Assembly (NCBI GenBank): GCA_902461085.1
Contig: CABPWH010000001.1
Span: 10,520 to 74,519, forward strand
Source of the DNA: an uncultured Collinsella sp.
Lineage (GTDB): Bacteria; Actinomycetota; Coriobacteriia; Coriobacteriales; Coriobacteriaceae
Length of the DNA: 64,000 bases
Direction: 5' to 3'
Shown here: positions 3,615-34,984 of the stretch, in pieces
Layout: each line of letters opens with the position of its first letter
Position numbering within the stretch: position 1 is the stretch's first letter
The notes under the pieces: generated by a model
Databases searched by the model: none
Told to the model about the DNA's origin: nothing
Seen by the model: the letters and a program-made list of their open reading frames with translations, nothing else
Made by a program: the position numbers and the translations under genes

Positions 3615-5325
3615 CGGTGACCTCGCTCACCTGCGCAAAAGCGGGCGAGACGGAAGATACCAGACGGCGCGAGAGTTCAATAACCTGGGGAGGCTCCACG
3701 TAGGCACGCCGCATGAGATCGATGTTCGAGAATAACTCGTGCGTGCGGCCGCGGTCGAGGATGCGACCGTCGGCCATTACCACAATGCGCTCGGCAAAAT
3801 CCGAGACGACTTCCATATCGTGGCAGACCATGATAACGGCGCAACCGCGCTCGGCCATGGTGCGCACCGTTTCCATGACGGTCATGCACTCGCGGTAATC
3901 AAGGCCGCTCGTGGGCTCGTCGAGCACGACGATCTTGGGTTCAACCACCACGACGGAGGCAAGCGCCACCATTTGTCGCTGGCCGCGCGAAAGCGAGAAA
4001 GGCGCCTCATCGGCAGGCAGGCCAAAGCGGTCGATGACGAGTTGAGCACGACGCAGAGCCTCGGCACGGTCCATGCCGCCAAGCTCCAGGCCAAATGCGA
4101 CCTCGTCGAGCACAGTGTCCTTGCAGATCTGACGGTCAGGGTTTTGGAAGAGGGTTGCGACTTCGCGGGCGATGCGGCTCGTGGGAACGGCTGCGGTATC
4201 CAGTCCCGTGACGCGCACGCTGCCCGAGGCGGGCTTAAGCAGGCCTGTGAGCAGTTTGGTGAGCGTGGTCTTGCCGGCGCCGTTTTGGCCGACGATGCCC
4301 ACGAGCTCGCCGGGATAGAGCGTCAGGCTAAGGTCGTGTACGGCGGCGCCGCCATTGGGATAGGCAAACTCAACATGGTCGAAGGTGAGTACGGGTTCGG
4401 CGTCCTTGGCATGAGGGCGCAACGATGGTGCATGCGGGGAACCGGCGGGCGGCTGGGCTTTGGTAGACGCGGGTGCGGGGGCGTCGAGCAAAGAAATCAT
4501 GCGCTCGGCCTCATCGACATCCAAGCAGGGGGTACCGCTTACCAGGCCATCGGCCTCGAAGCTATTGAAGATACGCGTGACGCGAGGGCAGTCGACGCCG
4601 ATGGCACGGAGCTCGTCGGTATGCGCGAAGACCTCGTGTGGCTCGCCCTGCAGCGCGATTTCGCCATGGTTGAGCACGAGCACGCGGTTGCAGTACTCCG
4701 AGAGCAGGGCGACCTTTTGCTCGACGACGACGATGGTGATTCCAAGTGCGCGGTTTGCCTCACGCAGCGTCTCGAAGACCAACGTGGAGCTGGCGGGGTC
4801 GAGTGCCACGGTGGGCTCGTCGAGAACCAAGACGCGCGGACGCATGGCGAGGATGGCGGCGATGGCTACCTTTTGCTTCTGTCCGCCCGAGAGGGTGGCG
4901 ATCTCGCGGTCGTGCAGGTCGCTGATGCCGACGGTCTCGAGAGTTTCGCTCACGCGCTGCTCGATCTGGTCGTGGGGAACGCCAAAGTTCTCGAGGCCAA
5001 AGAGCATCTCGTCCTCGACGACCGAAGCGACCATCTGCGTGTCGATATCCTGCAGCACACTGCCGACGATTTGCGACACGTCGGTGAGCGAGACTTCGCA
5101 GGTGTCGTGGCCGTCGACCATGACGGACCCAAAGAACGTGCCGGTGTAGTGGTGGGGCACGGCACCTGACAGGCAGGCGGCAAGCGTGGACTTGCCGGCG
5201 CCCGAGGGCCCGATGATGCCGATGAAATCTCCCTTGTTCACGCTGAGCGAGATGTGGCTGAGCGCCTGCTCGGTCTGCGTGCCATAGGAGAACGAGACAT
5301 CGTCGACGTTGATGATCGTTTCCAT
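3574..5325 (-). CDS. ecfA: ECF transporter ATPase, fused EcfA1-EcfA2 (two ABC domains)
   Basis: 583 aa with two Walker A motifs (GPSGAGKST, GQNGAGKTT), two LSGGQ-like signatures (LSGGQKQ, LSRGQRQ) and two Walker B motifs (VLVLDEPT, IVVLDEPT). Confidence 0.9.
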   Translation of the reverse strand: METIINVDDVSFSYGTQTEQALSHISLSVNKGDFIGIIGPSGAGKSTLAACLSGAVPHHYTGTFFGSVMVDGHDTCEVSLTDVSQIVGSVLQDIDTQMVASVVEDEMLFGLENFGVPHDQIEQRVSETLETVGISDLHDREIATLSGGQKQKVAIAAILAMRPRVLVLDEPTVALDPASSTLVFETLREANRALGITIVVVEQKVALLSEYCNRVLVLNHGEIALQGEPHEVFAHTDELRAIGVDCPRVTRIFNSFEADGLVSGTPCLDVDEAERMISLLDAPAPASTKAQPPAGSPHAPSLRPHAKDAEPVLTFDHVEFAYPNGGAAVHDLSLTLYPGELVGIVGQNGAGKTTLTKLLTGLLKPASGSVRVTGLDTAAVPTSRIAREVATLFQNPDRQICKDTVLDEVAFGLELGGMDRAEALRRAQLVIDRFGLPADEAPFSLSRGQRQMVALASVVVVEPKIVVLDEPTSGLDYRECMTVMETVRTMAERGCAVIMVCHDMEVVSDFAERIVVMADGRILDRGRTHELFSNIDLMRRAYVEPPQVIELSRRLVSSVSPAFAQVSEVTDVVRITKEMVHRG

Positions 5326-5344
5326 GGATACCTTTCATAGTCAT

Positions 5345-5384
5345 TGGGGACGTTCTTACATGACCAGTCGTTTAAGAACGTCCC
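5345..5384 (-). other. Intercistronic stem-loop between the S-component and ATPase genes
   Basis: ggggacgttctta-N14-taagaacgtcccc forms a perfect 13-bp stem with no U-tract. It lies just upstream of the ecfA RBS. Confidence 0.5.
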
Positions 5385-5432
5385 CAAAAGCTAGTCGTTT
5401 GGGACAGTCTTTGCTGGTGGGGCAGCGATGAG

Positions 5433-6003
5433 TTAGTTGAGCTTCAGGGCCTTCTGGATGGGCAAGTAGAGGGCGCCGACCAGAATGGCGTTAAAGACGG
5501 CGGTCATGGCGACGACGGGCAGCATGGCGGCGGCGAGCTCGCCGACCACGCCGAGCATGGCCATCTTGATGATCATGAAGATGACGCCGGAGACAAAGGT
5601 GGTCAGGAAGGTTGCAACAATGGCGATGGCGGGCTTGACCTGACCGTTCTTGCCGGCGGCGTTGACGATGCCGGCCATGAGCATGGCGGCGATGCCCTCG
5701 GCGGCAAAATCGACGAAAGGCGAAGTGGTGGTGATCTGGATCACGGCAGCTGAGATGAGGCCAATGACGAGCGCCTGGCCGATGTTGGGGCGAACGACCA
5801 GGATGGTGAGGCAGAAGGCCGAGATGATGAACTCGGGGCTGATCATGCCGCCCGAGATGCCCGAGATGGCCTTGCCGACGGTGAAGTTGAGGATGAAGCC
5901 GGCGGCGAGCAGGATGGCGAGCAGGACGAGAGCACGGACGTCGAGTTTGCCGCGGTCGGCGGTCTGGACGGTGCGGGGCTGGGCGGTGGTGGTGTTCTGA
6001 GAC
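5433..6003 (-). CDS. ECF transporter substrate-specific (S) component; substrate unknown, tryptophan is a candidate given the WWW leader
   Basis: 190 aa from MSQNTTTAQPR..., small polytopic membrane protein, RBS aaagga. The listed 229-aa ORF runs upstream through the terminator and is an artefact. Confidence 0.75.
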
Positions 6004-14099: not shown

Positions 14100-15278
14100 A
14101 TGAACGTTCTGGTCGTCAACGCAGGATCTTCGACGCTTAAGTATCAGGTCATCGATACCAAGTCCCACAAGGTGTCCGCAAAGGGCTCCTGCGAGCGCGT
14201 CTGCTTTACCGGCGGTACCTTCACCCACGCTGCCAACGGTTCCAAGAAGGTGACCGAGAACATCGAGTTCCCCGACCACAAGGTCGCCATCGAGGTCGTC
14301 CTGAAGGACCTCGAGGCCAACGGCGTCAAGATCGAGGGCATCGGCCACCGTATCGTTCAGGGCGGTTGGTACTTCGGCGATTCCTCCCTCGTCGACGAGG
14401 ACGTCCTCGCCAAGATCCGCGAGGTCGCTCCGCTCGCCCCGCTGCACAACAACCCCGAGGCCAACGTTATCGAGTACTGCCTGGAGCAGTATCCCGACCT
14501 GCCCAACGTCACGGTCTACGACACTGCTTTCCACTTCAATATGCCCGAGGTCGCCAAGACCTACGCCCTGCCCAAGGACGTCTGCGACAAGCTGCACATC
14601 CGTAAGTACGGCGCCCACGGCACCAGCTACCGTTACATCTCCAAGAAGGTCGCCGAGATGACCAACGGCGAGGCTCGCAAGGTCGTCGTGTGCCATATCG
14701 GCTCCGGTGCTTCCCTGTGCGCCATCGAGGACGGCAAGTGCATGGACACCACCATGGGTCTCACCCCGCTCGACGGCGTCATGATGGGAACTCGCTGCGG
14801 CTCTATCGACCCGGCTACCGTGTGCTACCTGCAGCGCGAGGGTGGCTACACCTTCGACGAGGTCGACGAGATGATGAACAAGAAGTCCGGCCTTTTGGCT
14901 GTGACCGGCGGCAAGACCAACGACTGCCGCAACGTCGAGGAGCTCGCCGCCGCTGGTGACCCCGATGCTCAGCTCGCCTTCGACATGTTTGTCTACAAGA
15001 TTGCCGCTAAGGCAGCCGAGATGGCTACTTCTATGTGCGGTATGGACACCCTGGTCTTTACTGCCGGCATCGGCGAGCACGCTCCGGCTGTCCGCGCTGG
15101 CGTGGCCGACCGTCTGGCCTTTATGGGCGTCAAGATGGATCATGCCCGCAACGCCCTGCGTGGCGACGGCGCTTGGTGCCTGTCTGCCAAGGATTCCAAG
15201 GTCAAGATTTTCGTCATCCCCACGGACGAGGAGTTCATGATCGCCTCCGACGTCGAGCGCATCGTCAACGGCAAGTAA
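14100..15278 (+). CDS. ackA: Acetate/propionate kinase, paralog 1
   Basis: 392 aa, MNVLVVNAGSSTLKYQ..., complete acetokinase signature motifs, RBS gggag. Confidence 0.9.
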   Translation: MNVLVVNAGSSTLKYQVIDTKSHKVSAKGSCERVCFTGGTFTHAANGSKKVTENIEFPDHKVAIEVVLKDLEANGVKIEGIGHRIVQGGWYFGDSSLVDEDVLAKIREVAPLAPLHNNPEANVIEYCLEQYPDLPNVTVYDTAFHFNMPEVAKTYALPKDVCDKLHIRKYGAHGTSYRYISKKVAEMTNGEARKVVVCHIGSGASLCAIEDGKCMDTTMGLTPLDGVMMGTRCGSIDPATVCYLQREGGYTFDEVDEMMNKKSGLLAVTGGKTNDCRNVEELAAAGDPDAQLAFDMFVYKIAAKAAEMATSMCGMDTLVFTAGIGEHAPAVRAGVADRLAFMGVKMDHARNALRGDGAWCLSAKDSKVKIFVIPTDEEFMIASDVERIVNGK

Positions 15279-15442
15279 TTGCAAAAGGGGAGGGGCTGGA
15301 CGACCGAGCGCCGTTCGGCCCCTCTTTTGTGCTCGTTGGGCGATATGCCTGATAGCTATTTATCAAGTTGTGATAACTTCTTATTAAAATGCGGCCGCCT
15401 TAAGGGGTCTGCGTCGACCGTATTGCACTGCAAAGGAGTCTC

Positions 15443-16621
15443 ATGAACGTACTTGTTGTTAACGCCGGCAGCTCAAGCCTCAAATATCAGCTTTTGGATA
15501 CCGATACTCGCGAGGTTTTCGCCAAGGGCAACTGCGAACGTATCGGTTCGGACATGGGCATCTTTGGCCACTCCGAGAACGGTGGCGCCAAGCAGACCGA
15601 GGAGGTCCCCTTCCCGGACCATCGTTCGGCTATCGCGCGTGTGCTCGAGGAGCTCGAGAAGACCGACTTTACGATCGATGGCATCGGCCACCGTATCGTT
15701 CAGGGTGGCTGGCACTTCGATGATTCCGCGGTCGTCGACGACGAGGTCATGGCTAAGATTCTCGAGGTGGCCCCGCTCGCCCCGCTGCACAATTACGGCG
15801 AGGCCGCAGCAATCGAGTATTGCCGCGAGAAGTATCCGGAGCTGCCCAACGTCGCCGTCTTCGATACCTCGTTCCACATGACCATGCCCGAGGTCGCCTA
15901 CACCTACGCGCTGCCCAAGGACGTGTGCGATAAGTACCACGTGCGCAAGTACGGTGCCCACGGCACGAGCCACCGCTATGAGTGGATGATGGCCAAGGAG
16001 ATCCTGGGCTCGCGCTGCCACCGTCTGCTTTCGTGCCATCTGGGCAACGGCGCTTCGCTCGCCGCCATCGAGGACGGCGTGTGCCGCGATACCACGATGG
16101 GCCTCACGCCGCTCGATGGCCTGATGATGGGCACCCGTTGTGGTTCCATCGACCCGGCCACCGTGTGCTACCTGCAGCGCGAGGGCGGCTACAGCTACCA
16201 GGAAGTCGATGACATGATGAACAAGCAGTCTGGTCTGCTTGCCATCTCGGGCATCTCCAACGACGCCCGCGACATCCGCACGCGCGCCTCCGAGGGCGAC
16301 GAGCGCTGCCTGCTCGCCTTCGATATGTTCGCCTATAAGGCCATGCAGCAGGCCGGTTCCATGATCGCTTCCATGGCGGGCGTGGACACCATTACCTTTA
16401 CCGCCGGCATCGGCGAGAACGACTGGTCGATCCGCAAGGCCTTCTGCGACTGCTTTGAGTGGCTGGGCGTGCGCATCGACAACAACAAGAACCGCGAGGC
16501 CGTGGGCAACGGCCCACAGGTCATCAGCGCCGCCGGCTCTTCCGTCACGGTTATGGTCATCCCCACCGACGAGGAATACATGATCGCCCACGACGTCGAG
16601 CGCCTGACCAAGAACAACTAA
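15443..16621 (+). CDS. ackA: Acetate/propionate kinase, paralog 2 (roughly 60-65% identical to paralog 1 by eye)
   Basis: 392 aa, MNVLVVNAGSSSLKYQ..., own RBS aaaggag. An intergenic hairpin and a promoter-like AT-rich stretch separate it from paralog 1. Confidence 0.9.
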   Translation: MNVLVVNAGSSSLKYQLLDTDTREVFAKGNCERIGSDMGIFGHSENGGAKQTEEVPFPDHRSAIARVLEELEKTDFTIDGIGHRIVQGGWHFDDSAVVDDEVMAKILEVAPLAPLHNYGEAAAIEYCREKYPELPNVAVFDTSFHMTMPEVAYTYALPKDVCDKYHVRKYGAHGTSHRYEWMMAKEILGSRCHRLLSCHLGNGASLAAIEDGVCRDTTMGLTPLDGLMMGTRCGSIDPATVCYLQREGGYSYQEVDDMMNKQSGLLAISGISNDARDIRTRASEGDERCLLAFDMFAYKAMQQAGSMIASMAGVDTITFTAGIGENDWSIRKAFCDCFEWLGVRIDNNKNREAVGNGPQVISAAGSSVTVMVIPTDEEYMIAHDVERLTKNN

Positions 16622-16644
16622 CGCGCGCATTTGCAAGTAAACGA

Positions 16645-16680
16645 AAGGCCTCCAGAGCAACAGCTCCGGAGGCCTTTTTA
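16645..16680 (+). terminator. Intrinsic terminator after ackA paralog 2
   Basis: ggcctccagagc-aacagct-ccggaggcc followed by ttttta. Confidence 0.65.
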
Positions 16681-16828
16681 CTAGCAGGTGGAAATTCCAG
16701 TCCCAAAGTGATCGTCACCAGCAACGCCTGCTCTTTCAGCAACGACACCCATTCGTTCAGGATTCTCAGCCCCAGCTCGTAGCCAAGCCGCCGTCCACTC
16801 CAGATACCCTGATTGCCACGTGGCGGCA

Positions 16829-16955
16829 GGGGCCCTACAGGGTAAAGCTCTGAAAACTTTCCGCAGGACGCATGAAACCCCCGCCGCACGAAGTGCGCAG
16901 CGGGGGTTTCATGCATGTCCGAGGACGTTTTCAGAGCTTTACCCTGTAGGGCCCC
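16829..16955. repeat. Giant nested palindrome P1: 29-bp perfect outer arms, 15-bp perfect inner arms and a 5-bp core hairpin
   Basis: ggggccctacagggtaaagctctgaaaac ... gttttcagagctttaccctgtagggcccc; inner gcatgaaacccccgc/gcgggggtttcatgc; core cgcac-gaa-gtgcg. No U-tract on either strand. It lies 15 bp past the pta stop codon. Confidence 0.8.
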
Positions 16956-16970
16956 GAGGGGATAAGTCCG

Positions 16971-17951
16971 CTACTCAGCCATCTGAGCCTGGACGGCGGT
17001 GATGGCCACGACACCCACGATGTCGTCAGCAGAGCAGCCGCGCGACAGATCGTTGACCGGCTTGGCGATGCCCTGCAGGATGGGGCCGTAGGCGTCGGCG
17101 CCGGCGAAGCGCTGGACCAGCTTGTAGCCGATGTTGCCGGCCTCGAGGTCGGGGAACACGAGCACGTTGGCCTTGCCGGCAACGGAGGAGCCGGGAGCCT
17201 TGAGCTGGGCGACGGTGGGGACAATAGCGGCATCGAGCTGCAGGTCGCCGTCGATGGCGAGCTCGGGAGCCTTCTCCTTGCAGAACTTCACAGCCTCCTG
17301 GACCTTCTTGGCGACCTCGCCGCCAGCGGAGCCCATGGTGGAGTAGGAGAGCATGGCCACGTGCGGCTCAACGTTGCCCATGAAGGTGGACCAGGAGTGA
17401 GCGGAGGCGATGGCGATCTCGGAGAGCTCGTCGGAGGACGGGTTGATGTTGAGGCCGCAGTCGGCGAAGATCAGCGTGCCGTCAGTGCCGAACTGCGGGG
17501 TGTCGGTGCACATCACGAAGAAGGCCGAGACCAGCTTGGTGCCCGGGGCGGTCTTGAGGATCTGAAGCGCGGGGCGCAGGGTGTCGGCGGTGGAGTGGCA
17601 GGCGCCGGAGACCAGGCCGTCGGCATCGCCCATCTTGACCATCATGGTGCCAAAGTAGGTGGCGTCCATCACCTGGGCGCGAGCCTGCTCGATGGTAACG
17701 CCCTTCTTGGCGCGGAGCTCGGCAAACTTCTGCGCATACTCCTCGTGCTTCTCGGCATTGCGCGGGTCGATGACGGTAGCGCCGGGAACGTTGATCTCGT
17801 CGGGGTTGCCCAGGATGACGATCTTTGCCAGGCCCTCCTCGATGATTTTGGTGGCCGCGACGATAGTGCGCGGATCCTCGCCCTCGGGCAGGACGATCGT
17901 CTTAAGGTCGGCCTTGGCGGCAGACTTCATACGGTTTAGGAAATCGCTCAT
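16971..17951 (-). CDS. pta: Phosphate acetyltransferase
   Basis: 326 aa, MSDFLNRMKSAAKA..., conserved Pta core, RBS aaggag. Convergent with the ackA pair. Confidence 0.9.
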   Translation of the reverse strand: MSDFLNRMKSAAKADLKTIVLPEGEDPRTIVAATKIIEEGLAKIVILGNPDEINVPGATVIDPRNAEKHEEYAQKFAELRAKKGVTIEQARAQVMDATYFGTMMVKMGDADGLVSGACHSTADTLRPALQILKTAPGTKLVSAFFVMCTDTPQFGTDGTLIFADCGLNINPSSDELSEIAIASAHSWSTFMGNVEPHVAMLSYSTMGSAGGEVAKKVQEAVKFCKEKAPELAIDGDLQLDAAIVPTVAQLKAPGSSVAGKANVLVFPDLEAGNIGYKLVQRFAGADAYGPILQGIAKPVNDLSRGCSADDIVGVVAITAVQAQMAE

Positions 17952-24540: not shown

Positions 24541-26949
24541 CTATTTCGTCTTGCCGGTAATGAGCGTCTTAAGACCCAGGCCGATCAGACCCAGGCCCAT
24601 GCGCACGCGACCGGGGCGATGGCGCTCGATGGCCTTGGTCTTGCCGGCGGGCTTATCGCGACGGGCGCTCGTCTCGGGTGCGGGCTTGGTGACCTGCGGC
24701 TCGGGCTGAGGTGCAGGTGCGGGCTCGGGCTCAATGACGGTCGCCTGGACCTCTTGGACTTTGGGTGCTACCGGCTGCGGCTCGGGCTCGGGGGCGGGTT
24801 TCGCCTCAATGACGGGCTCGGGCGCGGCCTCGGCGTTGCGATAGGCACGCTCCAGCAGGGCTTCCTGCGAGTTGAAGGGTTTCTCACCCTCTGCACGCTC
24901 CACGGGGACCCAGGTGCCGTCGCTCGTGAGGCTGCGGGCCTTCACGTTGTCGCGCAGCTGCATGCCCATGTACTCGTGCACTAGGGCGCGGCAGGTGGGG
25001 TCGAGCACGGGGAAGGCAATCTCCACGCGGTGCTCGGTGTTGCGCGTCATCATGTCTGCCGAGCTCAGGTAAATCATGTCCGAGTCCACGCCGAAAGCAT
25101 AGACGCGCGCGTGCTCCAAAAAGCGTCCGACGATGGAGCGGACATGCACGTTCTCGGTCTTGCCCGGAACACCGGGCTTGAGACACGAGATGCCGCGGAT
25201 GATCATGTCCACGCGGACTCCTGCGCACGATGCCTCGGCGATCTTGTCGATAACCTCGCGGTCGGTCAGCGAGTTGAGCTTAAAGAACACGCGGGCGGGC
25301 TCGCCGGCAAGGGCGCGCTGGATCTCGCGGTCAAGCCCGCGCATGATGAGCGGTTTCAGTCCGACGGGCGCCACACCCAGGAAGCGGTAGTCGCCGCGCA
25401 GGTTGCCCAGCGACAGATTGCGGAAGAACAGGTTGGCGTCCTCGCCGATGCCGGGATGGGCTGTCATGAGCATAAAGTCGCTGTAGAGTTTGGCCGTCTT
25501 CTCGTTAAAGTTGCCGGTGCCCAAAAGCGTGAGGCGCGTTAGCGCCATGCCCTCGCGATAGGTGAGCTGGCAGATCTTTGAGTGGCATTTAAAGCCCTCG
25601 GAACCATAGATGACGGTGCAGCCGGCCTCTTCCAGGCGCTCGGCCCACTCGATGTTGTTCTGCTCGTCAAAGCGGGCACGAAGTTCCATGAGCACCGTGA
25701 CCTCTTTGCCGTTCTCGGCAGCATCGATCAGCGACTCGCACAGGCGGCTCTGCTTGGCCACGCGGTAGAGCGTGATGCGCAGCGAGATGCACTCGGTGTC
25801 GTAGGCGGCCTCGTGCACCAGATCCAGGAAGGGGTTCATGGCCTCGTAGGGATAAAAGAGCAGCTTGTCGTGCTGCAGCACCTGCTCGCGGATGGAGCGG
25901 GTCATGTCGATGGTGGGATTGGGCTGCGGCCTAAACGGCGTAAAGAGCAGCTCGTTGCGCAGGTGCTCGGGAATCTTGCCCTCAATGCCAAAGACGTAGC
26001 CCAGGTCGAGCGGGATATCGCAGGTAAAGACAGAGCGGCGCGAAAGCTCGAGCGCCTTGCGGATGGTCTTGAGCGTTGCCTTCTCGAGCGACCCCGAGAC
26101 CGCGAGCACTACCGGCTGCAGACGCAGGCGCTTCTTGAGGATGCGCTTCATGTGCTGGCGGTAGTCCTCTTCCTCTTCGACGCCCTCGCCGTCCGGATCG
26201 ATGTCGGCGTTGCGGGTGACGCGGATCAGCGCACGATCCAGCGGCTTATAGGAGCCAAAGCAGCTGTCCAGGCAGGCGAGGATGACGTCCTCGAGCAAGA
26301 TGTAGGAGTAGGTGCCGGTGGGCGAGGGGATCTCGACCACGCGGTTCATCGAGGCGGAAATCTCGATAAGGCCCAGCAGGCTCTCCTCGTCGGTGGCGCC
26401 GTCCAGACCACAGGCCAGATAGAGCGCGCCATTGCGTAGGTTGGGGAAGGGGTGGCGAGGATCGATGACCAGCGGCGAGATGACCGGCGACACGTAGGCC
26501 TGGAAGTAGCGGGTTACAAAGGTGCGCTCCTCGGGCGTAAGCGAATCGATGCGGGCGCGGTGAACGCCCAAGGTGTCGAGCTTGCCCTCGATGCTCTTAA
26601 AGATGGACTCCCAACGGGTAAGGAGCCCGGGCATTTCGGCCATGACAGCATCGACCTGTTCGGAGGCGGTCATATTGCTCTTGTTGTCGACAGGTTGTTT
26701 TTTGAGCTCCGCCAGATCGGACAGGCCGCCCACGCGCACCATGAGAAACTCGTCGAGGTTAGACTCGAAAATCGATACGAACTTTAGACGCTCGAACAGC
26801 GGAACGGTCTCATCGAAGGCTTCGTCAAGCACGCGGTTGTCAAAGCGCAGCCAGCTAAGCTCTCGGTTTTGCGTGTACGAGAAGTCGCGCGGCGGTTTGC
26901 GCAGCTTTGCGGCGGCTTGCTTCTTTTCGATTTTGCTCGGCATATGCAT
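24541..26949 (-). CDS. ppk: Polyphosphate kinase 1 with a C-terminal PE-rich extension of about 100 aa
   Basis: NRELSWLRFNxRVLxEA N-terminus, PLD-like HKD domains, PE-rich tail (APEPVIEAKPAPEPEPQP...) ending in a hydrophobic GLGLIGLGL segment. Start at 26949 (MHMPSK) or 26943 (MPSK) is preferred over 26988. Confidence 0.85.
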   Translation of the reverse strand: MHMPSKIEKKQAAAKLRKPPRDFSYTQNRELSWLRFDNRVLDEAFDETVPLFERLKFVSIFESNLDEFLMVRVGGLSDLAELKKQPVDNKSNMTASEQVDAVMAEMPGLLTRWESIFKSIEGKLDTLGVHRARIDSLTPEERTFVTRYFQAYVSPVISPLVIDPRHPFPNLRNGALYLACGLDGATDEESLLGLIEISASMNRVVEIPSPTGTYSYILLEDVILACLDSCFGSYKPLDRALIRVTRNADIDPDGEGVEEEEDYRQHMKRILKKRLRLQPVVLAVSGSLEKATLKTIRKALELSRRSVFTCDIPLDLGYVFGIEGKIPEHLRNELLFTPFRPQPNPTIDMTRSIREQVLQHDKLLFYPYEAMNPFLDLVHEAAYDTECISLRITLYRVAKQSRLCESLIDAAENGKEVTVLMELRARFDEQNNIEWAERLEEAGCTVIYGSEGFKCHSKICQLTYREGMALTRLTLLGTGNFNEKTAKLYSDFMLMTAHPGIGEDANLFFRNLSLGNLRGDYRFLGVAPVGLKPLIMRGLDREIQRALAGEPARVFFKLNSLTDREVIDKIAEASCAGVRVDMIIRGISCLKPGVPGKTENVHVRSIVGRFLEHARVYAFGVDSDMIYLSSADMMTRNTEHRVEIAFPVLDPTCRALVHEYMGMQLRDNVKARSLTSDGTWVPVERAEGEKPFNSQEALLERAYRNAEAAPEPVIEAKPAPEPEPQPVAPKVQEVQATVIEPEPAPAPQPEPQVTKPAPETSARRDKPAGKTKAIERHRPGRVRMGLGLIGLGLKTLITGKTK

Positions 26950-27351
26950 CTGTCCGTTCAGTCCCCACAGAGGACGGTAGCCTAACACTTTTCACTATTG
27001 TCTCAATTTAGTCGACCGCTGGCACGGACGTATCGCGTGAACGGTATCTTTACCTACTTCTTACGCTGACAAGTCATAGGACTGACGCCCTGCTCGTCTG
27101 CAAGTGGTCTATATCCTCACTCAACTGGTACGTAAGTGTGAATAAGAATGATAGATAGCTGAATATCATCGAATACAGGCGGAAACGTAAACAAGCGTCA
27201 TTTATATACATAAAACTTATTTAGCTATGCAATTCTGAATCAAAAGTTTAGAGATGCAATTGCAAATGGTTTTTAGGAAAAAAGAGCGTTTACCTTAGAA
27301 AAGTTACTTTAGAATGCCGAAGTACATCATGGGGGAATCACATGCGATATA

Positions 27352-27416
27352 CCGTTCATCGCACTTTGTTGACCGTTCGGGGGCGAGGTGGAATTGCGGG
27401 TGGAATTTGGATATAA
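27352..27416 (+). promoter_or_regulatory. arcA copy-1 promoter region: two direct CCGTTC repeats 21 bp apart followed by a -10-like gatataa
   Basis: accgttcatcgc ... gaccgttcggggg ... ggatataact. The same architecture is conserved upstream of arcA copy 2. Confidence 0.4.
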
Positions 27417-27473
27417 CTAGAGCTGTCAGCAAGCAGCGTCCGCTATGGAAGGGCGCTGAGAGATTCGGCCGAA

Positions 27474-28740
27474 AGGCCCGAAAGAAAGGTAGGAGGCCAT
27501 GACGAAAGGTCTGCACGTGCCTTCCGAGATCGGCAAGCTCAGGAAGGTCTGCCTGCACCGTCCCGGCGACGAGCTCCTCAACCTGCCGCCCGACGAGCTC
27601 GAGCGACTCCTGTTCGACGACGTCCCGTTCCTGGAGGTCGCGCAGCAGGAGCACGACACCTTCGCCCAGATCCTGAGGGACCAGGGCGTGGAGGTCCTCT
27701 ATCTCGAGAACCTCGTCGCCGAGGTGTTCGACCAGGTCCCCGGCGCCCGCGCCGAGTTCACCGACCAGTACATCGCCGAGGCCGGCATCCGCGGCCAGCA
27801 CATGCCGCAGATCGTCCGCGAGAAGCTGGACTCCATCGAGGACAACCTCGAGTTCGTCAAGAAGACCATGGCCGGCATGACCAAGTCCGAGATCGACATG
27901 CCCCTCACGGCGTCCACGACCCTCGACTCCCTGGTCAACTCCGAGTCCGAGTCCGACCTGATCATCGACCCGATGCCCAACCTCTACTTCACCCGCGACC
28001 CGTTCGCGGTCATCGGCGAGGGCGTCAACCTCAACCGCATGTACTCGGTCACCCGCAACCGCGAGACCCTGTACGGCAAGTACATCTTCAAGTACCACCC
28101 CGACTACAAGGACGTCTCGCTGTACTTCCGTCGCGACTGCCAGTTCCACACCGAGGGCGGCGACGTGCTGAACATCAACGAGAAGACCCTCGCCGTCGGC
28201 ATCTCCCAGCGCACCCAGGCCGCCGCGATCGACGTCATGGCCCAGAACATCTTCTGGAACTCCGACTCCAAGGTCGAGCGCATCCTGGCCTTCGACATCC
28301 CGGTCTCGCGCGCCTTCATGCACCTCGACACGGTCTTCACCCAGATCGACGTCGATAAGTTCACGATCCACCCCGCCATCATGGGCACCCTGCGCGTCTA
28401 CGAGCTGACCGCCGGCAAGAACCCGGGCGACGTGAACATCCGCCTGATCGAGGACACCCTCGAGCACGTCCTGGAGGACGCCACCGGCGTCGACCAGGTC
28501 AAGCTGATCCCCTGCGGCGGCGGCGACCCGATCGCGGCCTCCCGCGAGCAGTGGAACGACGGCTCCAACACCCTGTGCGTCGAGCCCGGCAAGATCTGCG
28601 TCTACGCCCGCAACACCGTCACCAACGACGTGCTGTACAAGGAGGGCCTGGACCTTCTCGTCGTGCCCTCCGCCGAGCTCTCCCGCGGCCGCGGCGGCCC
28701 GCGCTGCATGAGCATGCCCTTCTGGCGCGAGGACCTCTAA
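27474..28740 (+). repeat. Direct repeat copy A: RBS plus the full arcA CDS, 100% identical to 30563..31829
   Basis: Identity begins 25 nt upstream of the ATG and ends exactly at the stop codon. All overlapping six-frame ORFs are identical between copies. Confidence 0.9.
27499..28740 (+). CDS. arcA: Arginine deiminase, copy 1
   Basis: 413 aa, MTKGLHVPSEIGKLRKVCLHRPGDEL... with a C-terminal catalytic Cys (GGGPRCMSMP). RBS aggagg. Very high GC3. Confidence 0.9.
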   Translation: MTKGLHVPSEIGKLRKVCLHRPGDELLNLPPDELERLLFDDVPFLEVAQQEHDTFAQILRDQGVEVLYLENLVAEVFDQVPGARAEFTDQYIAEAGIRGQHMPQIVREKLDSIEDNLEFVKKTMAGMTKSEIDMPLTASTTLDSLVNSESESDLIIDPMPNLYFTRDPFAVIGEGVNLNRMYSVTRNRETLYGKYIFKYHPDYKDVSLYFRRDCQFHTEGGDVLNINEKTLAVGISQRTQAAAIDVMAQNIFWNSDSKVERILAFDIPVSRAFMHLDTVFTQIDVDKFTIHPAIMGTLRVYELTAGKNPGDVNIRLIEDTLEHVLEDATGVDQVKLIPCGGGDPIAASREQWNDGSNTLCVEPGKICVYARNTVTNDVLYKEGLDLLVVPSAELSRGRGGPRCMSMPFWREDL

Positions 28741-28803
28741 AGTCTTCAAGGACTCGTACGGGTCATAATACATACATCTAGCTGCCATTAGATGTCTCCC
28801 ATT

Positions 28804-28831
28804 GGGGCGGTGCGGGTTTTCGCACCGCCCC
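28804..28831 (+). terminator. Stem-loop after arcA copy 1
   Basis: ggggcggtgcg-ggtttt-cgcaccgcccc (11-bp perfect stem) with a weak U-tract. Confidence 0.4.
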
Positions 28832-28889
28832 AACCTTGTATGAGGAACGTCAACACGATTGGACGACTGCTTTTGTAAGGAGCTTGGCC

Positions 28890-30014
28890 ATGGACATCAA
28901 GACGATTGGCGTTGAGGAATGGCTCAACGTTTGGGAGAAGAGCGCCGCGTGGGACATCGCCCAGTCGACGATCTCGTCGCTCACCATGGGCGAGCTGCGC
29001 GCGCTCGATGAACAGGACGGCGCCACGTTCTACGAGCGCCTGGACCGCGAGAAGATGAACTACGGCTGGATCGAGGGCTCGCCGGAGTTTAAGGCCGAGG
29101 TTGCCAAGCTGTATCGTCGCGAGGTCAATCCCGATCACATTCTGCAGACCAATGGCTGCACGGGCGCTAACCTCAACGCCATCATGGCTGTGGTCGAGCC
29201 CGGCGACCATGTTATCGCCGAGTGGCCCACCTACGCGCCGCTCTACGAGATTCCGCGCACGCTGGGCGCCGAGGTCGAGTATTGGGGGCTTCGCGAGGAA
29301 CTCGGCTGGAAGCCCGATATCGAACAGCTCAAGCGCCTGGTTCGCCCCACCACCAAGCTCATCTGCATCAACAACGCATCGAACCCCATCGGTACGGTGC
29401 TCGATGCCGATATGCTCGGCCAGATTGCCGAGATCGCCCGTTCGGTGGGCGCCTACGTGCTGTGCGACGAGGTGTACCTGCCGCTTGAGAACACCGAGGC
29501 CTTTATGTCGATGGCTGACGTGTACGAGAATGCCATTGTCACCAACTCGTTGTCGAAGACCTATTCGACGCCTGCGGCCCGCGTGGGCTGGGTCGTGGCA
29601 GACGAAGAGGTGTCCAACCGTATCCGTACCTATCGCGATTACACCATGATCTGCGGCGGCGTGTTCAACGATGCCCTGGCGACCTATGTGCTCGAGCACA
29701 AGGACAAGATTGTCGAGCGCAATCGCAAGATCGTGTTTGGCAACCGCGATATCGCGCAGGCTTGGATCGATACGCAGCATCGCGTTTCCTGGACGGCTCC
29801 GCAGGGCGTGTCCACCTCGTTTATCCAGCTTGATATTCCCGAGGACGACGAGGGGTTCTGCAAGCGCCTGCTGTCCGAGAGGGGAGTGCTGCTGGTACCC
29901 GGCAGCCGCTTTGAGCTTCCCTGTGGCGCACGCCTGGGCTACTGCGCGAGCGAGGACGTTCTGCGTGAGGGCCTGATGCTTTTGGGCGAGGCACTGGCGG
30001 AGTTTGATCGCTAG
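28890..30014 (+). CDS. Class I/II PLP-dependent aminotransferase; substrate unknown
   Basis: SLSKTYS PLP-lysine motif and NASNPIG block. RBS aaggag before MDIKTIG. Lies between the two arcA copies. Confidence 0.8.
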   Translation: MDIKTIGVEEWLNVWEKSAAWDIAQSTISSLTMGELRALDEQDGATFYERLDREKMNYGWIEGSPEFKAEVAKLYRREVNPDHILQTNGCTGANLNAIMAVVEPGDHVIAEWPTYAPLYEIPRTLGAEVEYWGLREELGWKPDIEQLKRLVRPTTKLICINNASNPIGTVLDADMLGQIAEIARSVGAYVLCDEVYLPLENTEAFMSMADVYENAIVTNSLSKTYSTPAARVGWVVADEEVSNRIRTYRDYTMICGGVFNDALATYVLEHKDKIVERNRKIVFGNRDIAQAWIDTQHRVSWTAPQGVSTSFIQLDIPEDDEGFCKRLLSERGVLLVPGSRFELPCGARLGYCASEDVLREGLMLLGEALAEFDR

Positions 30015-30439
30015 GATTCCGATGATCTTCGAGGGCCTTATCTAAATTGGCCGAAGATAATCGAAAACGGACCCGTTTCCCTAGTGAAGCGGGTCCGTTT
30101 TTCTATACCGAGAAGTCAAGTTGTTACAAATGGGGCTGTAAAGCGAGCCGGTATCCGCTGGGCCTTATACTGAGTTTCCGGTGAACGGTATCAAGCGTCT
30201 GGTAAACGGTAATTTATTTACCAGAAATGAATAGGACAAACTTTTTTCTGAATAAAAATGAAAATGGTTGAGACACGGTATGAACCGCTAATTCTATTCA
30301 TAGCTTTATTGGAAATATGCAATTTGAGGATGGTTTAACAAAGTTTAGTTCCATTTGATTTTAGGATTGAAAACGCGTTTAAGCACGTAAATACGCTTTA
30401 TTAAGATGAAGTGTGCCATGCGTGAAGTATATGTGTATG

Positions 30440-30506
30440 CCGTTCACCCCCTATAAAAAACCGTTCGGGGGCAAGGTGGAAGTATGAGCTGATTTTGGAT
30501 ATAAAT
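30440..30506 (+). promoter_or_regulatory. arcA copy-2 promoter region (a diverged paralog of the copy-1 promoter) with the same CCGTTC-N15-CCGTTC and gatataa elements
   Basis: gccgttcaccccc ... aaccgttcggggg ... ggatataaat. Confidence 0.4.
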
Positions 30507-30562
30507 ATGTCGTCAGCAATAACGCCTCACACGGAGGGGCGCTAACGAATCGGCCCTGACAA

Positions 30563-31829
30563 GGGCCCGAAAGAAAGGTAGGAGGCCATGACGAAAGGTC
30601 TGCACGTGCCTTCCGAGATCGGCAAGCTCAGGAAGGTCTGCCTGCACCGTCCCGGCGACGAGCTCCTCAACCTGCCGCCCGACGAGCTCGAGCGACTCCT
30701 GTTCGACGACGTCCCGTTCCTGGAGGTCGCGCAGCAGGAGCACGACACCTTCGCCCAGATCCTGAGGGACCAGGGCGTGGAGGTCCTCTATCTCGAGAAC
30801 CTCGTCGCCGAGGTGTTCGACCAGGTCCCCGGCGCCCGCGCCGAGTTCACCGACCAGTACATCGCCGAGGCCGGCATCCGCGGCCAGCACATGCCGCAGA
30901 TCGTCCGCGAGAAGCTGGACTCCATCGAGGACAACCTCGAGTTCGTCAAGAAGACCATGGCCGGCATGACCAAGTCCGAGATCGACATGCCCCTCACGGC
31001 GTCCACGACCCTCGACTCCCTGGTCAACTCCGAGTCCGAGTCCGACCTGATCATCGACCCGATGCCCAACCTCTACTTCACCCGCGACCCGTTCGCGGTC
31101 ATCGGCGAGGGCGTCAACCTCAACCGCATGTACTCGGTCACCCGCAACCGCGAGACCCTGTACGGCAAGTACATCTTCAAGTACCACCCCGACTACAAGG
31201 ACGTCTCGCTGTACTTCCGTCGCGACTGCCAGTTCCACACCGAGGGCGGCGACGTGCTGAACATCAACGAGAAGACCCTCGCCGTCGGCATCTCCCAGCG
31301 CACCCAGGCCGCCGCGATCGACGTCATGGCCCAGAACATCTTCTGGAACTCCGACTCCAAGGTCGAGCGCATCCTGGCCTTCGACATCCCGGTCTCGCGC
31401 GCCTTCATGCACCTCGACACGGTCTTCACCCAGATCGACGTCGATAAGTTCACGATCCACCCCGCCATCATGGGCACCCTGCGCGTCTACGAGCTGACCG
31501 CCGGCAAGAACCCGGGCGACGTGAACATCCGCCTGATCGAGGACACCCTCGAGCACGTCCTGGAGGACGCCACCGGCGTCGACCAGGTCAAGCTGATCCC
31601 CTGCGGCGGCGGCGACCCGATCGCGGCCTCCCGCGAGCAGTGGAACGACGGCTCCAACACCCTGTGCGTCGAGCCCGGCAAGATCTGCGTCTACGCCCGC
31701 AACACCGTCACCAACGACGTGCTGTACAAGGAGGGCCTGGACCTTCTCGTCGTGCCCTCCGCCGAGCTCTCCCGCGGCCGCGGCGGCCCGCGCTGCATGA
31801 GCATGCCCTTCTGGCGCGAGGACCTCTAA
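30563..31829 (+). repeat. Direct repeat copy B: RBS plus the full arcA CDS, 100% identical to 27474..28740
   Basis: See copy A. The period between copies is 3089 bp. Confidence 0.9.
30588..31829 (+). CDS. arcA: Arginine deiminase, copy 2
   Basis: Protein identical to copy 1. Confidence 0.9.
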   Translation: MTKGLHVPSEIGKLRKVCLHRPGDELLNLPPDELERLLFDDVPFLEVAQQEHDTFAQILRDQGVEVLYLENLVAEVFDQVPGARAEFTDQYIAEAGIRGQHMPQIVREKLDSIEDNLEFVKKTMAGMTKSEIDMPLTASTTLDSLVNSESESDLIIDPMPNLYFTRDPFAVIGEGVNLNRMYSVTRNRETLYGKYIFKYHPDYKDVSLYFRRDCQFHTEGGDVLNINEKTLAVGISQRTQAAAIDVMAQNIFWNSDSKVERILAFDIPVSRAFMHLDTVFTQIDVDKFTIHPAIMGTLRVYELTAGKNPGDVNIRLIEDTLEHVLEDATGVDQVKLIPCGGGDPIAASREQWNDGSNTLCVEPGKICVYARNTVTNDVLYKEGLDLLVVPSAELSRGRGGPRCMSMPFWREDL

Positions 31830-31934
31830 GTCTTTCCGTTTCCGGTGCGGTCCCCCTACAACCGCACCGGCTTCGCCCGTTAAACGGGCACCACTAATAC
31901 TTACGTAATTCATTTCTTCGAAAGGAATCAAACC

Positions 31935-32930
31935 ATGGGTGTTAACCTCTCCGGCCGTAGCTTCCTCAAGCTTCTTGACCTCACCACCGAGGAGATCGAG
32001 TACCTGCTCAAGCTCTCCAAGAACTTCAAGGATATGAAGCGCGCTGGCGTTCCGCACCGCTATCTCGAGGGCAAGAATATCGTTCTGCTCTTCCAGAAGA
32101 CCTCTACTCGTACCCGCTGCGCCTTCGAGGTCGGCGGCATGGATCTGGGTATGGGCGTGACCTACCTCGATCCGGGTTCGTCGCAGATGGGCAAGAAGGA
32201 GTCCATCGAGGACACCGCCCGCGTTCTCGGCCGCATGTATGACGGCATCGAGTTCCGTGGCTTTGCCCAGGACGACGTCGAGGAGCTCGCTGCTAAGTCC
32301 GGCGTGCCCGTGTGGAACGGCCTGACCACCGAGTGGCACCCCACCCAGATGCTCGCCGACATCCTGACCGTCCAGGAGAACTTCAACTACGACATCAAGG
32401 GCAAGACCCTCGTCTTCATGGGCGACTGCAAGAACAATGTCGCTCGCTCCCTCATGGTCGCCTGCTCCAAGCTCGGCATGAACTTCGTGGCCTGCGGCCC
32501 CGAGGAGTGCATGCCCGCCGACGACGTCATCGAGGCCTGCAAGCCCATCGCCGAGGCCAACGGCTGCACCATCAAGCTGACCACCGACGTCAAGGACGGC
32601 GTCACCGGTGCCGACGTTATCTACACCGACGTGTGGGTCTCCATGGGCGAGCCCGACGAGGTCTGGGCCGAGCGCATCGCTCAGCTCACTCCGTATCGTG
32701 TTACCTCCGAGGTCATGGCTATGGCCAACCCGGGTGCCATCTTCCTGCACTGCCTGCCCAGCTTCCACGACACCAACACCACCATTGGCGCCGAGAAGTG
32801 CGAGCAGTTCGGCATCACCGAGCAGGAGGTCACCGACGAGGTCTTCGAGAGCCCCGCTTCCAAGGTCTTCGACGAGGCCGAGAACCGCATGCACACCATC
32901 AAGGCTGTCATGTACGCCACGCTCAAGTAA
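31935..32930 (+). CDS. arcB: Ornithine carbamoyltransferase (catabolic)
   Basis: 331 aa carrying STRTR, HPTQ and HCLP motifs. RBS aaagga. Confidence 0.9.
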
Positions 32931-33077: not shown

Positions 33078-34556
33078 ATGACTGAGACCGCTAAGAAAAA
33101 GCGCGGTATGCCTTCATCGTTCACCATTCTTCTTGCTCTGCTGGCAATTGTCGCAGTGATTACCGTTATCGTCTCCGGCACGTCCGGCGGCGCGGTTACT
33201 GCCGCCCGTCTGAGCGATTTCTGCACCGCCCCGATTAAGGGCTTCGCTGACGCTCTGCCCGTCTGCCTCTTCGTTATGATCCTGGGCGGCTTCCTCGGCA
33301 TGATGACCGAGACCGGCGCTCTGGACAACGGCATCGCCGTCCTGGTGCAGAAGCTTAAGGGCAACGAGATCATGCTCGTTCCCGTGCTGATGCTCATTTT
33401 CTCCCTCGGTGGTACCACTTATGGTATGTGCGAGGAGACCGTTCCCTTCTACGCCCTGCTCGCCGCTACCATGATGGCCGCTGGCTTCGACCCGATGGTC
33501 GGCGCCGCTACCGTCCTGCTCGGCGCTGGCTGCGGCTGCCTGGGCTCCACGGTTAACCCGTTCGCCGTCGGCGCTGCCGTCGACGCTCTGACCGGCGTTG
33601 GCATTGAGGTCAACCAGTCCATCATCATCGGCCTCGGTGCCGTCCTGTGGATTGTCACTACCGCTATGTCCATCGTCTTCGTGATGAACTATGCCAAGAA
33701 GGTCAAGGCTGACAAGGGTTCTACCATCCTGTCGATGCAGGAGCTCAAGGACGCCGAAGAAGCTCACGGCAAGGCTGCTTCCGAGGTCCACAAGGAGGTC
33801 AAGCTCACCGGTCGTCAGAAGGGTGTTCTGATCGCCTTCGCCTTCACCTTCGTCGTCATGATCGTCGGCTTCATCCCGCTGGCCGACCTCAACGAGGGCG
33901 TCGCCAACTTCTTCGACGCTGGCGCTGTCTACGACGCCGACGGTAACGCCGTCGTCCAGGGCTGGTCTGCCCTGATCACCGGCCTGCCCATTGGCCAGTG
34001 GTACTTCGACGAGGCTTCCACCTGGTTCTTCCTCATGGCCGTCCTGATCGGTATCATCGGTGGCCTGTCCGAGAAGCAGATCGTTAACACCTTCATCACC
34101 GGCGCTGCCGACATGATGTCCGTTGTTCTCGTCATCGCCCTCGCCCGTGGCATCTCCGTCCTCATGGCTAACACCGGCCTCGACGTCTTCGTCCTTGACG
34201 CTGCCGCCAATGCCCTGGCTGGCCTGTCCGGCGTGATCTTCGCTCCCATGAGCTTCCTGGTCTACTTCGGCCTGTCCTTCCTGATCCCCTCGACCTCCGG
34301 TATGGCCACCGTCTCCATGCCCATCATGGGACCGTTGGCTGTTAAGCTCGGCTTCTCGCCTGAGGTCATGGTCATGATCTTCTCCGCCGCCATCGGTGTC
34401 GTGAACCTTTTCACCCCGACCTCCGGCGCCATCATGGGCGGTCTCGCCCTGGCCAAGATCGAGTGGACGACCTGGCTCAAGTTTGCCCTTAAGCTCATCG
34501 TCGCGCTCTCTGTCGTCTGCGCCATCATCCTGACCGTCGCCTGCGTGTTGATCTAA
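33078..34556 (+). CDS. YfcC/DcuC-like anaerobic carrier (putative arginine:ornithine antiporter of the ADI locus)
   Basis: About 490 aa and 12+ TM segments. The start MTETAKKKRGMP has a G-rich RBS at a 9-nt spacer. Lies directly downstream of arcB. Confidence 0.75.
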   Translation: MTETAKKKRGMPSSFTILLALLAIVAVITVIVSGTSGGAVTAARLSDFCTAPIKGFADALPVCLFVMILGGFLGMMTETGALDNGIAVLVQKLKGNEIMLVPVLMLIFSLGGTTYGMCEETVPFYALLAATMMAAGFDPMVGAATVLLGAGCGCLGSTVNPFAVGAAVDALTGVGIEVNQSIIIGLGAVLWIVTTAMSIVFVMNYAKKVKADKGSTILSMQELKDAEEAHGKAASEVHKEVKLTGRQKGVLIAFAFTFVVMIVGFIPLADLNEGVANFFDAGAVYDADGNAVVQGWSALITGLPIGQWYFDEASTWFFLMAVLIGIIGGLSEKQIVNTFITGAADMMSVVLVIALARGISVLMANTGLDVFVLDAAANALAGLSGVIFAPMSFLVYFGLSFLIPSTSGMATVSMPIMGPLAVKLGFSPEVMVMIFSAAIGVVNLFTPTSGAIMGGLALAKIEWTTWLKFALKLIVALSVVCAIILTVACVLI

Positions 34557-34984
34557 GTACCCAACGGGTACCCCACGGAAACCTTGACGATCCTGTAGAG
34601 GATCACCTGGTCATCGTCTGTCCGGTGGGGTAAACCCACCGGTAGACTCCTACCTTTAGCCCCCTTCCGTTCCGTGCGCGGGAGGGGGCGCTCTTGTGTT
34701 CCGGCGTTTTACCAAACGCCGGAACCACTCGACGCTGCAAGCCCGCCAGAGCGGCAATCTGACGTTCAATCGTCGGGCATGGCCAAAAGGCCTATGCCCT
34801 CCCCTTTCACGTCACCTTGCTCGCTCTGGCGGGCTTTCGCTGACTTTTGCCCCACCTGCGGCGCTGCCATTGTTGCTGCAGGGGGACAGCTTGCTCGCTC
34901 TGGTGCCTGTTCGCTGTCCGTTCTCTGCCCGCAACGTTTCTGCTGTTGGTGCAAAGGGGTCAGATTACTTTGCGCCAAAAGGGG

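Follow-up and report, generated by a model that had tools for sequence, protein, structure and literature searches.

The arginine deiminase locus described here lies in a 64,000-nucleotide stretch of DNA from an uncultured Collinsella sp. (assembly GCA_902461085.1, contig CABPWH010000001.1, positions 10,520 to 74,519), referred to below as the window, whose source group is the Collinsella aerofaciens species complex. The arginine deiminase gene, arcA, is present twice on the plus strand. The gene order is ppk (minus strand), up1-arcA1-aminotransferase, and up2-arcA2-arcB-arcE, followed by a DUF1846 gene, CTP synthase, xerC, and the dcw cluster. Here, up1 and up2 designate the regulatory region plus leader of each arcA copy, arcB encodes a catabolic ornithine carbamoyltransferase (OTC), and arcE a putative exchanger.

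Self-alignment of the window delineates a 1266-bp direct repeat (27475..28740 and 30564..31829, both on the plus strand) with an offset of 3089 and zero mismatches, for which a chance origin is impossible. Each repeat copy is composed of 24 nt of 5' untranslated region (UTR), containing the 3' arm of a leader hairpin ("hairpin 2", see below) and the ribosome-binding site (RBS) AAAGAAAGGTAGGAGG, and of the entire 413-codon arcA (arcA1, 27499-28740; arcA2, 30588-31829). The two open reading frames (ORFs) have identical 413-residue translations that match Pfam ADI (1e-115) and the TIGR01078 equivalog (496.8 bits, cut-off 489.1), in keeping with the arginine deiminase assignment made in a preliminary description of this DNA from its letters alone. 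That description gave the repeat as 1267 bp beginning 25 nt before the ATG; its perfect identity and offset stand, and its size and start are corrected to 1266 bp and 24 nt. At its 5' end, the identity begins inside the 3' arm of hairpin 2; at its 3' end, it stops with the final A of the TAA stop codon, exactly where the description had placed it, and alignment of the window flanks detects no homology between the copies 3' of the two stop codons. The 3' flank of arcA2 is co-linear into the OTC gene, as in relatives having a single arcA. The arcA2 downstream flank is thus the ancestral arcA-OTC spacer, the arcA1 downstream flank is new sequence, and the 3' edge of the identical tract is the duplication junction itself.

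The upstream regions up1 (26989..27474, +) and up2 (30015..30563, +) are both AT-rich, as first described, with 44% and 43% GC, respectively, vs 60% for the window. They had been reported as homologous at ~75% identity over ~450 bp. This is broadly true of their proximal parts, which are 78% identical with indels over ~130 nt (BLAST) and 71% identical over 175 nt (global alignment), and does not extend to the distal ~400 nt, where the similarity is weak (heavily gapped alignment, 64% identity over the aligned columns, z = 3.8 vs shuffles). The conserved blocks listed at the time, ACCGTTCGGGGGC[GA]AGGTGGA, TTTGGATATAA, and GTCAGCAA, do occur in both regions. Between positions -160 and -25, the leaders form two classes, u1 and u2: identity is 92% among u1 leaders, 96% among u2 leaders, and 67.5% between u1 and u2, with 33 columns sharing no state, and both classes are equidistant (53-59%) from outgroup leaders. 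The distal part of up1 (27000-27300) is the most variable stretch of the locus, with a nucleotide diversity (pi) of 0.12-0.22 among genomes; it apparently falls into two allele classes relative to the window, at ~96-97% and ~80-82% identity, up2 being more uniform.

The locus was compared among 62 genomes possessing both complete copies in the same arrangement, taken from GTDB species representatives and other long contigs. Earlier subsets comprise 51 genomes or aligned loci (site classes, pi) and 52 genomes (5' edge). An exact-protein look-up with DUF1846 supplied further contigs of 0.2-0.45 Mb; look-ups with OTC and with a 392-residue aminotransferase ORF returned short contigs or nothing. 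The order ppk/arcA/aminotransferase/arcA/OTC/DcuC-type gene (arcE) is present in every long contig.

Within a genome, arcA1 and arcA2 differ by 0 nt in 45 cases, 1 nt in 14, and 2 nt in 3 (mean ~0.3), vs a mean of 9.0 nt and a maximum of 23 between genomes. Identity within and difference between genomes is the pattern that the preliminary description had proposed to look for as the mark of concerted evolution. Of the 67 variable sites, 56 are concordant between copies throughout the genomes. Discordance at the outermost position of the tract, the final base of the stop codon, is seen in 10 genomes, where one copy reads TAG and its partner TAA. In the initial set (51 genomes, 60 variable sites), third codon positions account for 46 of the sites, and selection on the protein therefore cannot explain the concordance. 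On the megabase contig of genome L040, each copy departs from the window at 11 sites, with 0 differences between its own two copies, and the subset of megabase and hybrid contigs displays the same pattern as the full set. Along the 51 aligned loci, pi is ~0.007 in both arcA copies, 0.06-0.09 in the aminotransferase gene, and 0.07-0.24 in the leaders; the fall, from 0.05-0.22 to the arcA level, coincides exactly with the borders of the repeat.

The 5' edge of identity is located at -24 in 49 of 52 genomes, the position above which the leaders differ by indels in the loop and 5' arm of hairpin 2. Beyond this usual edge, three second leaders are mosaics. That of L018 (1.47-Mb contig) has u1-type sequence between about -98 and the ATG; that of L068 has its hairpin 2 replaced by the u1 version, with identity out to -34; and that of L009 (2.09-Mb contig) is pieced together from u1 and u2 segments. 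These mosaics look like what is expected of conversion tracts with variable ends. Since they lie outside the exact repeat, they cannot have been created by assembler collapse.

The two-copy layout, with identical junctions, is common to dozens of GTDB species-level clusters, and the flanking genes of the complex (trmA, ppk, and the aminotransferase gene) show 10-13% third-position divergence. A single arcA, in the arrangement ppk / arcA-OTC-arcE, is found in C. phocaeensis, two further Collinsella lineages, C. tanakaei, and Enorma, whose ArcA proteins are 84-90% identical to that of the window. A scan of species representatives for ArcA returned Collinsella and Coriobacteriaceae records only. 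An apparent second ArcA of C. phocaeensis (P0019) is the same gene called with a different start. Shared junctions, flank divergence, two fixed leader classes, and single-copy outgroups together indicate that the duplication is old, and that it is a derived trait common to the whole C. aerofaciens complex rather than a fresh event. From the concordant sites, the old junctions, and the mosaic leaders, we conclude that the arcA pair has very probably been homogenised by gene conversion, evolving in concert since this old duplication, which is also the choice that the preliminary description had made over a fresh duplication.

A very recent duplication, too young for the copies to have diverged, would make conversion unnecessary and would explain the zero differences in the window. 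It has practically no probability left: the same junctions recur across dozens of clusters with diverged flanks, the leaders are 32% diverged and fixed as two classes, and both copies carry 56 between-genome polymorphisms, by which this reading is refuted. Purifying selection on protein and codon usage of a highly expressed enzyme, keeping two independently evolving copies identical, could draw on the extreme codon bias of arcA (see below), on its slow evolution in single-copy lineages as well, and on the presence of the exact ArcA protein in 5867 blocks of the public collection vs 21 for the exact OTC protein. Yet such selection cannot put the same synonymous variants in both copies genome after genome; the third-position sites that dominate the variation are nearly all concordant, and the identity spans the 24-nt UTR and ends exactly where homology ends. 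Taken alone, it is therefore a highly improbable cause. In place of short-tract conversion, one might invoke repeated rounds of unequal crossing-over, in which the locus shrinks to one copy and is duplicated anew, or substitution of the entire locus by inter-strain recombination: contigs joining up1-arcA directly to OTC exist, and the window and L006 are identical in arcA with flanks differing by 1.5%. However, re-duplication would have to rebuild the same aminotransferase insert and up2 every time, yet both match ordinary flanking DNA in diversity and keep their co-linearity throughout; replacing the locus does not in itself render two copies identical; and leader tracts of 10-75 nt are a conversion signature. 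Neither route is thus likely to account for the pattern, and we consider both very improbable.

An assembly artefact, in which one arcA, or two diverged ones, would have been walked through twice by the assembler at a collapsed repeat, calls for closer attention, since short-read graphs give identical copies by construction. Five assemblies, isolate and MAG (metagenome-assembled genome) alike (L032, L034, L039, L059, and L083), contain a stand-alone repeat contig of 1267 bp, that is, the 24 + 1242 + 1 nt shared in most genomes, and many contigs end at the repeat edges. The collapse risk announced in the preliminary description is thus real. Its suggestion of a hotspot for deletion or amplification fares less well. 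Nine contigs join up1-arcA straight to OTC and bypass the aminotransferase gene, which lends weak support to deletion, as these are indistinguishable from assembler short-cuts. Amplification finds no support, the one candidate with two aminotransferase-up2-arcA units (L053) being a two-strain chimera through the repeat. Likewise, an ArcA at "91% identity" in a two-copy locus (P0022) reflects a garbled, frame-shifted stretch of ~100 nt in the hybrid assembly L116. Against an artefact, six samples yielded contigs of 1.5-2.4 Mb in which both copies are present with the same spacing and 0-1 differences, single internal differences between copies are resolved in several assemblies (L009, L015, L104, and L108), mosaic leaders lie outside the exact repeat, and the sequences bordering each copy on either side are unique to it and syntenic in over 60 genomes. 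The artefact is therefore very improbable. Several points nonetheless weigh against homogenisation by conversion. Most of the 62 genomes are short-read MAGs, in which one looped de Bruijn edge yields identical copies and in which the assembler may pop bubbles; the megabase-scale or hybrid contigs number only ~6-8; the two copies of the window are known from its assembly alone; and part of the low arcA diversity is ordinary constraint, the gene being slow in single-copy lineages too. The argument for conversion is consequently made to rest on the long contigs, the resolved internal differences, and the mosaic leaders.

The coding tract also differs from its surroundings in composition. The GC content at third codon positions (GC3) is 0.976 in arcA, vs an average of 0.777 (sd 0.064) for 49 gene-like ORFs of the window, the next highest values being those of pta (0.89) and OTC (0.88). 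The difference between arcA and OTC GC3 ranges from -0.008 to -0.035 in five single-copy lineages and reaches +0.093 in the window, where all other genes of the locus have a GC3 below that of their outgroup orthologs. Third-position changes private to the window lineage were polarised with two outgroups. In arcA, 11 changes go from A/T to G/C (weak-to-strong, W-to-S) and 0 in the reverse direction (S-to-W), vs 35 W-to-S and 261 S-to-W in five neighbouring genes combined (Fisher p = 3e-10 vs arcA) and 7 W-to-S and 24 S-to-W in OTC alone (p = 7e-6). The T-ending codons of outgroup arcA genes (GTT, GCT, CGT, and ATT) are nearly absent from that of the window. Within the complex, third-position diversity is 0.016 in arcA vs 0.054 in OTC, about a third of the OTC level, and arcA diversity is ~10-fold below that of the intervening aminotransferase gene. 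When single-copy lineages are compared with one another, divergence in arcA is no slower than in OTC (0.230 vs 0.163); in two close single-copy pairs, arcA is somewhat the slower of the two genes, with third-position differences in arcA vs OTC of 8 vs 14 and 5 vs 6, which are small counts. A within/between ratio of the Hudson-Kreitman-Aguadé (HKA) kind is partly confounded by saturation in the fast genes, and slow evolution of arcA is also seen where the gene is single-copy; reliance is therefore placed on the arcA-vs-OTC contrast only.

Both GC-biased conversion, purging A/T mutations, and stronger codon selection would fit the high GC3 and low diversity of arcA, the latter acting on a gene whose doubling suggests a demand for high expression. 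That conversion between the arcA copies is GC-biased, and frequent enough to have reshaped the gene, is put forward as a tentative and rather doubtful proposal. If true, it would provide a natural single-locus demonstration of GC-biased gene conversion via paralogs in a bacterium. For bacterial genomes, such bias has been proposed on the strength of correlations, seen genome-wide, with recombination between strains. The arcA tract resembles that proposal in having a GC3 above its surroundings and third-position changes that are solely W-to-S; it differs in that the signal is limited to a single paralog pair, where codon selection on a highly expressed gene is a confounder, instead of being genome-wide.

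Both leaders share a set of elements with single-copy relatives: two ACCGTTC-type boxes, TTGGATATAA, hairpins 1 and 2, and the RBS stretch. In up1, sequence reading places the ACCGTTC boxes at 27351-27357 and 27372-27378 and TTGGATATAA at 27407-27416; hairpin 1 occupies 27434-27458, and the 5' arm and loop of hairpin 2 begin at 27467. These up1 elements are kept across the 62 genomes. In up2, sequence reading places the CCGTTC boxes at 30439-30445 and 30460-30466, TTGGATATAA at 30495-30504, and hairpin 2 at 30552-30567 (all on the plus strand). The boxes, 21 nt apart and ~30-60 nt upstream of TTGGATATAA, are retained by the two leaders and by every single-copy relative; they are likely to form a regulator-binding site for the arc genes. 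Hairpin 1 exhibits compensatory changes (C-G in u1 vs U-A in u2, and G-C vs A-U in three sequences), and hairpin 2 retains its pairing with a sequence that differs between copies. The stretch AAAGAAAGGTAGGAGGC, starting at the usual 5' identity edge, is invariant even in other genera. Rfam searches of the whole window at the gathering threshold, and of 26900-32100 with permissive settings, detected no known RNA family in the leaders, and a scan with the sigma-70 consensus found no promoter in either upstream region; the conserved TTGGATATAA is a candidate -10 element. Each arcA unit has a complete but differently diverged control region; differential regulation of the two is plausible.

A further element that may concern the leaders is located just 3' of arcE (34640-34705): ~55 nt are ~90% conserved out to Enorma, the remaining spacer being unalignable. 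It displays 9-11 nt of complementarity to the invariant arcA RBS stretch (CTCCTACCTTT vs AAAGGTAGGAG at 27485 and 30574) and ends in a GC-rich, terminator-like hairpin with one compensatory change. The predicted duplex energy between this element and the arcA RBS is not significant alone. The element could be a 3'-UTR anti-Shine-Dalgarno sequence or a small RNA acting on both arcA leaders.

The genes around the repeat form an arginine deiminase cluster with it. The 5' neighbour of up1 is ppk (24541-26988, -). In the spacer following arcA1, a strong stem-loop, GGGGCGGTGCG-GGTTTT-CGCACCGCCCC (28804..28831, +), also found in L018 and devoid of a T-run, may act as a partial terminator or stabiliser. 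The class I/II pyridoxal phosphate-dependent aminotransferase gene (28890..30014, +) is arcT-like (Pfam Aminotran_1_2; NCBIfam PRK07324 / NF005593, 526 bits, cut-off 476), and its product is 374 residues long as called in public contigs. It is followed by a terminator-like hairpin with a T-run, AAAACGGACCCG...CGGGTCCGTTTTT (30064..30104, +), identified by sequence reading as its loop is beyond the scanner's length. By virtue of this hairpin, arcA1-aminotransferase and arcA2-arcB-arcE look like separate transcription units. arcB (31935..32930, +) starts 105 nt 3' of arcA2 and matches Pfam OTCace_N and OTCace as well as TIGR00658 (405 bits, cut-off 281). The arcE-type gene (33078..34556, +) encodes a putative arginine/ornithine exchanger of the YfcC/DcuC family (Pfam DcuC, 1.8e-82), whose best NCBIfam match, the YfcC basic amino acid antiporter, scores 204 bits and remains under its 500-bit cut-off. 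Membrane proteins of the DcuC/YfcC type have been assigned to ArcE arginine/ornithine exchangers, and aminotransferases named arcT are found within arc clusters (PMC5300872). No carbamate kinase or amino-acid-kinase domain (arcC) was found among the genes spanning trmA through rsmH or the further window ORFs covered by the scan, and this gene may be encoded elsewhere in the genome.

Some genomes possess additional genes at the locus. In L018 (JBKWJT010000001.1), an ArcD-like antiporter gene of the APA family (4212-5831, 492 residues) is inserted between arcA1 and the aminotransferase gene, giving the order arcA1-arcD-like-arcT-like in the first unit; its best match is the TIGR03810 arginine-ornithine antiporter (476 bits, cut-off 591). 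In L009 (ERZ28750378 contig_1872), IS110-family and IS3-family transposase genes lie between arcE and the DUF1846 gene (14535-16849), and the DUF1846 product is called shorter, at 440 residues. Elsewhere in the window, two tandem acetate kinase (ackA) genes (14100-15278 and 15443-16621), 165 bp apart and adjoined by pta (16971-17951, -), encode proteins of just 60% identity. They serve as a control indicating that adjacency by itself does not homogenise paralogs.

The proposed history of the locus begins in the ancestor of the C. aerofaciens complex, where a segment with the arcA regulatory region and arcA would have been duplicated, turning a single arcA-arcB-arcE(-arcT) cluster into the two units up1-arcA1-aminotransferase and up2-arcA2-arcB-arcE. 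In C. phocaeensis, the aminotransferase gene sits 3' of arcE, ending the arc cluster, and its product is 70% identical to that of the window. This level of divergence matches that of ppk and trmA, so the window gene is probably the same one, relocated. A tandem duplication of promoter-arcA-arcB-arcE-arcT would yield an arcT-up2-arcA2 junction, and the present order would follow if the first unit then lost arcB-arcE and the second lost arcT. As no aminotransferase remnants were found 3' of arcE, whole-operon duplication with reciprocal loss stays a model. The coding copies would subsequently have overwritten each other repeatedly by non-reciprocal homologous recombination, that is, intrachromosomal gene conversion, presumably of the RecA type. 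A mutation arising in one copy would be either erased or copied across, and the pair would evolve as one gene, with distinct promoter and leader regions. Tract ends would be set by the loss of homology, at the stop-codon junction on the 3' side and in the indel-rich leader from -25 upward on the 5' side, with only occasional extension into the leader. Two independently regulated promoters may give the cell flexibility in both the dosage and the regulation of an arginine deiminase that would be expressed at a very high level.

Conversion between tufA and tufB, which also operates in many other bacteria, was originally brought to light by genetic work in Salmonella and E. coli. Concerted evolution of protein genes by conversion is by now established for tufA/tufB, amo/hao, and others (PMC5485169, PMC6053082), and the Collinsella arcA pair is a further case of this well-known paralog conversion, ordinary in kind. 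As with tufA/tufB, it is a highly expressed gene pair in separate operon contexts, with coding regions near-identical within a genome, unrelated or diverged flanks, and copies that differ between species (PMC5485169; PMC6053082). In contrast, tuf copies are far apart and often inverted, whereas the arcA copies are direct repeats 3.1 kb apart with one gene between them, making deletion possible; tuf belongs to the translation machinery and arcA encodes a catabolic enzyme; and the tuf pair is hundreds of millions of years old, while the arcA pair has the age of one species complex's radiation. arcA is absent from a published list of 26 concertedly evolving prokaryotic genes (PMC6053082). rRNA operons are likewise kept identical by recurrent intragenomic conversion and cause assembly collapse (PMC8022953); they are, however, multi-copy RNA genes, unlike the two-copy, protein-coding arcA with its separate promoters. 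Clustering of arcA, arcB, an ArcE-type exchanger, and an arcT-like aminotransferase is shared with known arginine deiminase clusters, where duplicated arc genes have been documented (PMC5300872), as exemplified by arcC1/arcC2, arcD1/arcD2, and arcT in Lactococcus lactis, alongside the arcA-B-C-E-T cluster of Streptococcus (PMC5300872). Unlike in these clusters, the duplicated gene is here arcA itself, without an adjacent carbamate kinase gene, and the known arc duplicates are diverged paralogs with different roles rather than identical copies under conversion (PMC5300872). No description of a duplicated arcA in Collinsella was found in the literature, including Collinsella papers that mention arginine deiminase.

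The repeat accounts for the breaks and collapse of this locus in short-read Collinsella assemblies, and such collapse affects arcA copy calls, MAG completeness, and abundance estimates based on read mapping. The opposing GC3 trends of arcA and its neighbours offer a testable handle on GC-biased conversion in bacteria, and the two distinct, conserved promoter/leader regions preceding an identical coding sequence form a ready system in which to ask what a second promoter brings. For the organism itself, the locus represents a clean, population-scale case of concerted evolution of a protein-gene pair in a very common human gut actinobacterium, and concerns an enzyme, arginine deiminase, that feeds both energy and ammonia metabolism.

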